This document shows positions 21,290-21,608 of a stretch of 64,000 nt of DNA, one piece after another; position 1 is the stretch's first letter; every line of letters starts with the position of its first letter. Location of the stretch: assembly GCF_011045215.1 (NCBI RefSeq), contig NZ_CP049201.1. One strand, given 5' to 3'. The notes under the pieces are model-generated. The model was given only the letters and a program-made list of their open reading frames with translations. It made no database searches and was not told the DNA's origin. This DNA comes from Escherichia coli (lineage in GTDB: Bacteria; Pseudomonadota; Gammaproteobacteria; Enterobacterales; Enterobacteriaceae). A program made the translations under genes and the position numbers.

Positions 21290-21608
21290 GATGCGATGCG
21301 CACGGGTAAAACGTGCCATTAATGTCGGATGCGGCGTGAACGCCTTATCCGACCTACGTTCGGCACCCGTAGGCCGGATAAGATGCGCCAGCATCGCATC
21401 CGGCAATGCGCACAAGGTAACAAATGTGCCATTCATGTCAGATGCGGGGTGAACGCCTTATCTGACCTACGTTCGACACCACCAGCACCCGTAGGCCGGA
21501 TAAGATGCGCCAGCATCGCATCCGGCAATGCGCACGAGGTAGTGAATGTGCCATTTATGTCAGATGCGGCGTAAATGCCTTATCTGAACTACGTTTGGCA
21601 CCACCATG
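21290..21608. repeat. BIME/REP tandem array (~2.5 copies of ~115-bp unit)
   Basis: Repeated gtgccatt(a/c/t)atgtc(g/a)gatgcgg.gt.aa(c/t)gccttatc(c/t)ga.ctacgtt...gtaggccggataagatgcgccagcatcgcatccggcaatgcgcac units between speB and loiP. Confidence 0.7.

Follow-up and report, generated by a model that had tools for sequence, protein, structure and literature searches.

The window (the whole 64-kb stretch of DNA analysed here) contains the convergent genes speB and loiP, on the plus and minus strands respectively, and the 327 bp at 21284-21610 constitute the whole gap between them. The gene names are taken from the PGAP annotation of NZ_CP104613 (E. coli AHM8C212RI), in which the spacer is base-for-base identical. 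An array of REPs occupies this gap. Bounded by the two stop codons, it is wholly extragenic and forms part of the 3' untranslated regions of speB and loiP alike, with the first REP starting 40 nt past the speB stop and the last ending in a stem 23 nt, and a foot 18 nt, from the loiP stop. The features are as follows.

20363..21283, plus strand: speB (agmatinase) CDS, an ORF whose matching DNA PGAP annotates as speB; TAA stop at 21281-21283
21284..21303, 20 nt: head remnant GCACCAGATGCGATGCGCAC, the degenerate left half of a Z2-like REP, assigned by allele comparison and a weak inverted match to Z2 arms
21304..21323, 20 nt: first head-to-head linker, shortened, GGGTAAAACGTGCCATTAAT, in register with the linkers at 21405-21436 and 21527-21558
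21324..21357, 34 nt, plus strand: REP Y1, GTCGGATGCGGCGTGAACGCCTTATCCGACCTAC, with a CTAC foot at its 3' end and 2 mismatches to the Y probe
21358..21368, 11 nt: tail-to-tail linker 1, GTTCGGCACCC
21369..21404, 36 nt, minus strand: REP Z2a, GCCGGATGCGATGCTGGCGCATCTTATCCGGCCTAC on the minus strand, with plus-strand GTAG at 21369 and 2 mismatches to the Z2 probe
21405..21436, 32 nt: head-to-head linker 1, AATGCGCACAAGGTAACAAATGTGCCATTCAT, without an IHF consensus
21437..21470, 34 nt, plus strand: REP Y2, a compensated stem variant (CAG...CTG) with one upper-stem mismatch (GCGGGGT); hairpin z -2.7
21471..21490, 20 nt: tail-to-tail linker 2, GTTCGACACCACCAGCACCC, 9 nt longer than linker 1
21491..21526, 36 nt, minus strand: REP Z2b, identical in sequence to Z2a
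21527..21558, 32 nt: head-to-head linker 2, AATGCGCACGAGGTAGTGAATGTGCCATTTAT
21559..21592, 34 nt, plus strand: REP Y3, the most degenerate copy, with loop GTAAAT, a foot mismatch (GAACTAC) and 7 mismatches to the Y probe; hairpin z -2.5
21593..21610, 18 nt: tail GTTTGGCACCACCATGCC, common to the 318-bp and 429-bp alleles; the K-12 tail differs
21611..22369, minus strand: loiP (yggG) metalloprotease CDS, stop codon at 21611-21613; the PGAP CDS on identical DNA is 759 nt

The mechanically called ORF of loiP reaches farther upstream than the PGAP CDS. In other alleles of the spacer the head remnant reads GCGCCGGATAAGATGCGCAC. All REP mismatch counts refer to probe sequences for the Y and Z2 types.

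The five REPs, each 34 or 36 nt long, carry CTAC feet at 21354, 21467 and 21589 and GTAG feet at 21369 and 21491. Their order is Y1(+) Z2a(-) Y2(+) Z2b(-) Y3(+), so that orientation alternates and Y+Z2 units follow one another head to tail. The sequence-only reading had proposed that REP palindromes fill the spacer in about 2.5 tandem copies of a unit of about 115 bp. Both parts stand, with the array filling 21284-21610 and approximately 2.6 copies of a 113/122-bp unit from 21304 to 21610. Tandem Repeats Finder, the check that reading had called for, returns a single array at 21363-21606 with a period of 122, 2.0 copies, 90% matches and a score of 411. A gap-free repeat search resolves three copies of a 59-nt core, which start in register at 21309, 21422 and 21544 and are spaced by 113 and 122 nt, the second and third copies being 90% and 85% identical to the first. 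The longer period arises because tail-to-tail linker 2 carries 9 extra nucleotides.

A REP is an imperfect palindrome of 30-40 nt whose foot carries a conserved GTAG/CTAC tetranucleotide. In a BIME-2, z2 and y REPs of inverse orientation are repeated in tandem several times over and joined by short linkers with flanking motifs, and the number of copies differs from strain to strain (PMC3333891). The elements of the speB-loiP spacer have the palindrome length and foot of the REP family, are extragenic and are dispersed in the genome. The Y units lie 2-7 mismatches from the Y probe and both Z2 units lie 2 mismatches from the Z2 probe. They alternate in tandem, with tail-to-tail linkers of 11 and 20 nt and head-to-head linkers of 32 nt, and across alleles with spacers of 47 to 429 bp the locus has 0, 1, 2, 3, 5 or 7 REPs. 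The Z2 assignment is supported independently of the probe, as the Z-type unit, with every pair accounted for, can be aligned to hairpin 2 (Z2) of the Rfam naRNA4 model, whose source RNA contains one Z2 and one Y unit (bioRxiv 10.64898/2026.03.23.713779). The earlier identification of a BIME is thus correct and can be refined to BIME-2 from the alternating Y and Z2 units, the GTAG/CTAC feet, and the lack of both a Z1 unit and an IHF-site linker. This identity rests directly on the sequence.

Neither the locus nor the class of element is new. The K-12 counterpart is catalogued as 'BIMEs2 3082469-3082615, 146 bp, yggG>-<speB' (Sutormin et al. 2018, PMC6379681 supplementary table), an entry that also backs the Z2 assignment independently of the probe, and what the window carries is a rare length allele of it. 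The two share the flanking genes and the Y/Z2 alternation, and over the first 194 nt of the K-12 spacer (205 bp) a single mismatch separates it from the window: the head, Y1, linker and Z2a are as in the window, while Y2 differs at one base. Relative to K-12, the window adds one 122-bp unit (Z2b, linker and Y3), giving five REPs rather than three, its junction has a tail-to-tail linker of 20 nt instead of 11 nt, and its tail, GTTTGGCACCACCATGCC, is that of the 318- and 429-bp alleles.

Every REP of the array forms a hairpin that contains an internal mismatch and is more stable than those of shuffled controls (z -2.5 to -4.5). The Y1 hairpin has a folding energy of -10 kcal/mol as DNA (z -3.8) and that of Z2a -12.9 kcal/mol (z -4.5), and folding of the whole spacer gives z -5.7 on the plus strand and -5.4 on the minus strand. 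Conservation of pairing was examined in ten Y units, drawn from this locus, its other alleles and two other sites in the window. Pairing holds in 95% of the stem cells of this set, and sliding the partner columns reduces the figure to 27-45%. The stem has also undergone two-sided changes, from G-C to A-U at columns 4/27 and from U-A to C-G at columns 2/29. Since stem pairs are kept through such changes, it is the hairpin, and no reading frame, on which selection or the copying mechanism acts. The Y-type core pattern occurs at five sites in the 64-kb window against 0.17 expected; three of these are in this spacer and the other two Y-type REPs are at 9281 and 37389. At the scale of the genome, a query containing the spacer matches a median of 13 places per E. 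coli genome.

The sequence-only reading also held that the copy number of such arrays varies between strains, and suggested a cross-strain comparison, which bore this out with a range of 0 to 7 REPs. The sample comprised 60 genomes taken at even steps through the 5,425 complete genomes matching a query made of the two flanks only. The alleles, including those seen outside this sample, are distributed as follows.

47-bp spacer: 0 REPs (one degenerate remnant); 3 of 60 genomes
90-bp spacer: 1 REP; 4 of 60 genomes
142-bp spacer: 2 REPs; 0 of 60 sampled genomes
203/205-bp spacer (K-12, O157, CFT073, Nissle): 3 REPs; 39 of 60 genomes, about 65%
318-bp spacer: 5 REPs; 0 of 60 sampled genomes
327-bp spacer (this stretch): 5 REPs; 0 of 60 sampled genomes
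429-bp spacer: 7 REPs; 5 of 60 genomes
speB and loiP non-adjacent: no BIME; 9 of 60 genomes

The steps between alleles are whole Y+Z2 units (+113, +122 and +226 bp). A D-glucosaminate (dga) island replaces the BIME in approximately 15% of genomes, and a further class of approximately 5% has no REP in the spacer. The count of non-adjacent genes agrees with the 798 genomes whose two flanks are matched at places apart from each other. With roughly a fifth of genomes lacking the array, whatever it does must be dispensable. The spacer length (47, 90, 142, 203/205, 318, 327 or 429 bp, or the dga island) provides an easy strain polymorphism.

The junction that defines the 327-bp allele (Y2, the 20-nt linker and Z2b) is present in 3 of 5,426 complete genomes, all of them chicken isolates, whose spacers are identical to that of the window and whose flanks are 98.6% identical to it over 1.2 kb. 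The 318-bp allele, which also has five REPs, is found in at least 9 genomes. A figure of 208 records at ≥99% identity was rejected as the frequency of the five-REP allele in favour of the three genomes returned by the junction-specific query. The 20-nt linker 2 resembles the tail of the K-12 array (TTCGACACCACCAG) fused to a normal linker end (CACCC). Comparison of the two sequences suggests that the 205- and 327-bp alleles may differ by a single gain or loss of 122 bp between short ACCACCA repeats.

Two routes could account for such changes. The number of units may shift by slippage or unequal recombination between direct repeats; alternatively, TnpA-REP may act at the GTAG feet. Among known systems, the array can be compared with REPIN/RAYT, REP doublets mobilised by TnpA-REP, of which the E. 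coli REPtron is at yafL-fhiA. The GTAG/CTAC tetranucleotide and the stem mismatch, both needed for TnpA-REP binding and cleavage in vitro (PMC3333891), are kept in all five REPs of the window. Unlike in that system, no tnpA-REP gene adjoins the array, and any mobilisation would presumably be in trans. Slippage or unequal recombination explains the gain and loss of units equally well as mobilisation by TnpA-REP.

Other species also carry REPs in this spacer. The last 12 codons of speB, used as a degenerate search pattern, identified 111 loci in data comprising one genome per species, and at 55 of these loiP is convergent within 700 bp. The spacers at this site can be summarised as follows.

Escherichia albertii type strain: 323-bp spacer, five-REP Y-Z2-Y-Z2-Y array in 113-bp units
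Escherichia whittamii: 246-bp spacer, 4 REPs
Escherichia sp. E1V33: 205-bp spacer, 3 REPs
Citrobacter species: 95-212-bp spacers, mostly 1 or 2 Y-like REPs, several with none
Salmonella diarizonae: 88-bp spacer, 1 REP
Most other genera: 36-150-bp spacers, no E. coli-type REP

The presence of REPs at this spacer across species indicates that REP occupancy is old, and that the BIME-2 arrangement dates back at least to the origin of the genus Escherichia.

Taken as a whole, the spacer is, with high confidence, best explained as a five-REP BIME-2 whose ORFs are by-products and which probably serves as a two-way attenuator, an exonuclease block and a set of gyrase sites. A promoter and terminator scan of 21100-21800 found neither an intrinsic terminator nor a sigma-70 promoter; the array thus differs from a classical terminator and lacks an obvious promoter. 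As intrinsic terminators are missing from both genes, transcripts of speB and of loiP are expected to run into the array. REP hairpins would form on whichever strand is transcribed, and may act as a two-way transcription attenuator that is partly Rho-dependent, as reported for REP325, a partly Rho-dependent attenuator and stabiliser (bioRxiv 10.64898/2026.03.23.713779). The same hairpins would block 3'-5' exonucleases and so set the 3' ends of both mRNAs. Elsewhere, 3'-5' exonucleases are halted by REP hairpins, which are found at the steady-state ends of transcripts terminated by Rho (PMC6061677). Where REPs separate convergent genes, expression of the two genes is higher, and approximately 40% of such REPs are in predicted bidirectional terminators; mRNA half-life showed no general dependence on terminal REPs (bioRxiv 10.64898/2026.03.23.713779).

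A third role would involve DNA gyrase, for which the array may offer Y-type sites where convergent transcription piles up positive supercoils. Gyrase cleavage sites are over-represented in BIME-2 elements, which as a class serve as gyrase sites irrespective of transcription, with y units preferred over z2 (PMC6379681). The K-12 copy is cleaved in vivo, with 0 sites in the Cfx set, 2 in RifCfx (rifampicin plus ciprofloxacin), 0 in Micro and 2 in Oxo (oxolinic acid) (PMC6379681 supplement). As cleavage was detected in only two of the four drug conditions, the K-12 array is not among the strongest BIME-2 gyrase sites. By analogy, a two-way transcript end, an exonuclease block and a gyrase site are most likely the functions of this five-REP allele; K-12 or other REP loci supply the expectations for its 3' ends, Rho dependence, mRNA stability and gyrase cleavage. 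A bolder proposal, which we consider improbable, is that the number of Y+Z2 units is a heritable, strain-specific dial tuning speB (and with it putrescine synthesis) and loiP via termination, 3'-end protection or gyrase-site strength, the 327-bp allele being a recent one-unit duplication of a K-12-like array with a measurable effect on expression. Apart from the general and unsettled question of whether REP copy number tunes the expression of neighbouring genes, the locus raises no new one.

The array might instead have no host function and be selfish or neutral repeat DNA, growing and shrinking in a spacer that tolerates it. In favour of this, the number of REPs varies from 0 to 7, and the array is wholly missing where the dga island sits. 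The mutations that weaken the stems of Y2 and Y3 are also consistent with a lack of function, as is the ability of TnpA-REP to cleave and recombine BIMEs in vitro (PMC3333891). Against this, a REP array has been kept at this position in E. coli, E. albertii, E. whittamii and Escherichia sp. E1V33, with single REPs at the site in Citrobacter and Salmonella, and compensatory changes maintain the pairing of the stems. Moreover, the K-12 copy is cleaved by gyrase in vivo (PMC6379681), and neither gene has another terminator. We therefore regard an array devoid of function as unlikely, and favour a BIME-2 that would end and protect both transcripts and offer gyrase sites.

REP325/naRNA4, at yjdM-yjdN in K-12 (Rfam RF02564), is likewise built from tandem Y+Z2 pairs, and both of its hairpins align between model and window. 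This raises the prospect that the speB-loiP array is a gene for naRNA4-like nucleoid-associated small RNAs, whose Y+Z2 transcripts would bind HU and condense the chromosome. Minus-strand matches to the model (RF02564) lie at 21372-21467 (46.4 bits, E 2.9e-07), 21494-21589 (42.8 bits) and 21313-21354 (37.7 bits), and approximately 80% of REPs are reported to be transcribed (PMC4550694). Every one of these matches is below the gathering score of the family (59.5 bits), however, and the alignment requires an insertion of 16-19 nt in the linker, which is longer by that amount in the window than in the model. The likeness is confined to the two shared REP hairpins, and no promoter-like site is present in 21100-21800. 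The settings also differ, with 12 hairpins between tandem genes at REP325 and five between convergent genes here. Further, REP325/naRNA4 was found to act without measurable nucleoid compaction, and is proposed instead to end and stabilise mRNA locally, within a 3' UTR (bioRxiv 10.64898/2026.03.23.713779). A small-RNA gene is accordingly very improbable, and local action of the BIME-2 on its two neighbours is preferred.

It is more doubtful still, and in our judgement highly unlikely, that the REPs, by holding up ribosomes at termination, control how speB or loiP is translated. REPs do lie downstream of both stop codons, and the rule applies to many E. coli genes (PMC12306157). In the mechanism of Liang, Rudd and Deutscher (2015), however, an effect is reported only where less than 16 nt separate the REP from its stop codon (summarised in PMC12306157), and the distances here are too long, at 40 nt for speB and, for loiP, 18 nt to the foot or 23 nt to the stem.

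Several ORFs can be called mechanically within the array.

21291..21452, plus strand, frame 0: 53 aa, starting in the head remnant; read as a repeat artefact, and passed over by the sequence-only reading
21329..21574, plus strand, frame 2: 81 aa, ATG in the Y1 stem; read as a repeat artefact
21505..21756, plus strand, frame 1: 83 aa, ATG in the Z2b stem, extending 146 nt antisense into loiP; read as a repeat artefact
20420-21436, minus strand: 338 aa, beginning inside the array and antisense to speB; likewise passed over by the sequence-only reading

The second and third of these had been described as two 80-aa ORFs; their coordinates and peptides hold, with lengths of 81 and 83 aa in place of 80. 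With 81 and 83 open codons, ATG starts and related ORFs in other alleles, they could be taken for real small repeat-containing proteins. Their ATGs, however, belong to the conserved GATG within REP stems, and no Shine-Dalgarno sequence is present upstream of the ORF starts at 21291, 21329 or 21505. Division by 3 leaves a remainder of 2 for 113 as well as for 122, and the repeated peptide (…CGVNALS.LR…) consequently moves from absolute frame 0 to 2 to 1 from one unit to the next. A repeat of protein would stay in frame, and the change of frame from unit to unit therefore identifies a repeat of DNA. The three plus-strand ORFs overlap one another by 124 and 70 nt, and the stop codon of the ORF at 21329-21574 is a TAA supplied by the Y3 loop variant.

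The number and the lengths of the ORFs also follow copy number. The ORF at 21329-21574 has counterparts of 55 aa in K-12 and of 78 aa in the alleles of 318 and 429 bp, the 90- and 47-bp alleles have none, and the nearest allele (318 bp) lacks the 83-aa ORF. Substitutions keep the hairpin pairing, as described above. A Pfam scan of the three plus-strand ORFs matched no family. Their exact products are absent among 15 billion proteins, which is uninformative alone, since the allele is rare. Twelve annotated E. coli records were checked, of which one (EC-JS426) has the dga island at the site; none of the 11 that carry a BIME in the spacer, including the curated MG1655 record, has a CDS annotated there. 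A literature search on spurious ORFs arising from REPs returned nothing specific, and one on this locus mostly brought up work on Streptococcus SpeB. That the ORFs at 21329-21574 and 21505-21756 encode proteins is barely credible. The earlier judgement that they are artefacts of the repeat is upheld by the starts in REP stems, the use of three frames, the tracking of length with copy number and the lack of a Pfam family or annotation; judged from their sequence, the plus-strand ORFs in the array are by-products of the repeat. In annotation, neither the three plus-strand ORFs nor the start of the 338-aa minus-strand ORF should be called as genes. Small proteins added recently, YqgG among them, do appear in the curated MG1655 record at a distance of a few kb.

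BIME-1 (the RIB/RIP element) likewise consists of GTAG-footed REP palindromes, extragenic and at the 3' ends of genes, and has the composition Y + L + Z1 in single copy with an IHF site in the L linker. That the spacer element is a BIME-1 binding IHF was rejected as almost certainly wrong: the IHF consensus WATCAANNNNTTR has 0 matches in the array with up to 1 mismatch on either strand, the partner REP is the 36-nt Z2 and not Z1, BIME-1 occurs singly (PMC3333891) whereas this element is in multiple tandem copies, and the K-12 locus is listed as BIME-2 (PMC6379681).

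Within window positions 20900-22100, the spacer between speB and loiP matches the spacers of three isolates from chicken base for base, whereas the speB and loiP coding sequence on either side shares only 98.6% identity with theirs. In these flanks the window is closer to a strain from freshwater, whose spacer is 205 bp long, at 99.2% identity. Either the spacer and its flanks have had different histories, or the complete RefSeq E. coli genomes do not include the source strain.

The spacer is not always occupied by a BIME. Of 5,425 complete E. coli genomes, 798 (approximately 15%) have speB and loiP separated by a D-glucosaminate island of about 7.6 kb, which contains dagR, genes for four PTS subunits, dgaE, and dagF. 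Among the compared loci it is found in L123 and also in L009:

L123 (NZ_CP072322.1) 8341-15970, D-glucosaminate island between speB and loiP.

A BIME was sought at both island junctions and is absent from each. Downstream of speB, the island-bearing locus carries the hairpin TTTCCCGG…CCGGGAAA, while the 55-bp spacer between dagF and loiP contains the palindrome CCGACCTAC-N9-GTAGATCGG, which by its sequence looks like two REP feet. Many other Enterobacteriaceae have no loiP at 2.5 kb or less from speB, so the island may have been there first, with the BIME coming to occupy the spacer afterwards.

REP arrays are also present at this locus in other Escherichia. The type strain of E. albertii, NBRC 107761, has a five-REP Y-Z2-Y-Z2-Y array in its speB-loiP spacer, the 323 bp that follow the speB stop; the array is composed of 113-bp units and has a K-12-like tail. 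The E. whittamii spacer contains four REPs and ends in a CCGGCGTAATAAAACGC tail, which it shares with two E. coli alleles, those of 47 bp and 131 bp. Elsewhere in the window, two Y-type REP cores lie outside the speB-loiP array:

9281-9302, minus strand, Y-type REP core.
37389-37410, minus strand, Y-type REP core, an exact match to the classical GCCGGATGCGGCGTGAACGCCTTATCCGGCCTAC.

Two further open reading frames lie in this part of the window:

20420-21436, minus strand, mechanical ORF of 338 aa, antisense across all of speB.
19496-20227, plus strand, lipoprotein-like ORF of 243 aa between speA and speB.

The antisense ORF, which starts within the array in the Y2/linker region and is annotated in none of the genomes examined, is a further artefact. 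The 243-aa ORF has a lipoprotein-type signal (…LLAGCSS…). Among 5,426 complete E. coli genomes, 3,557 carry it, and its annotation reads either 'hypothetical protein' or 'lipoprotein'; a Pfam search with it returned no family. It is missing from K-12 MG1655, where the speA-speB gap is 137 bp, and is disrupted by an IS1 element in a few genomes.
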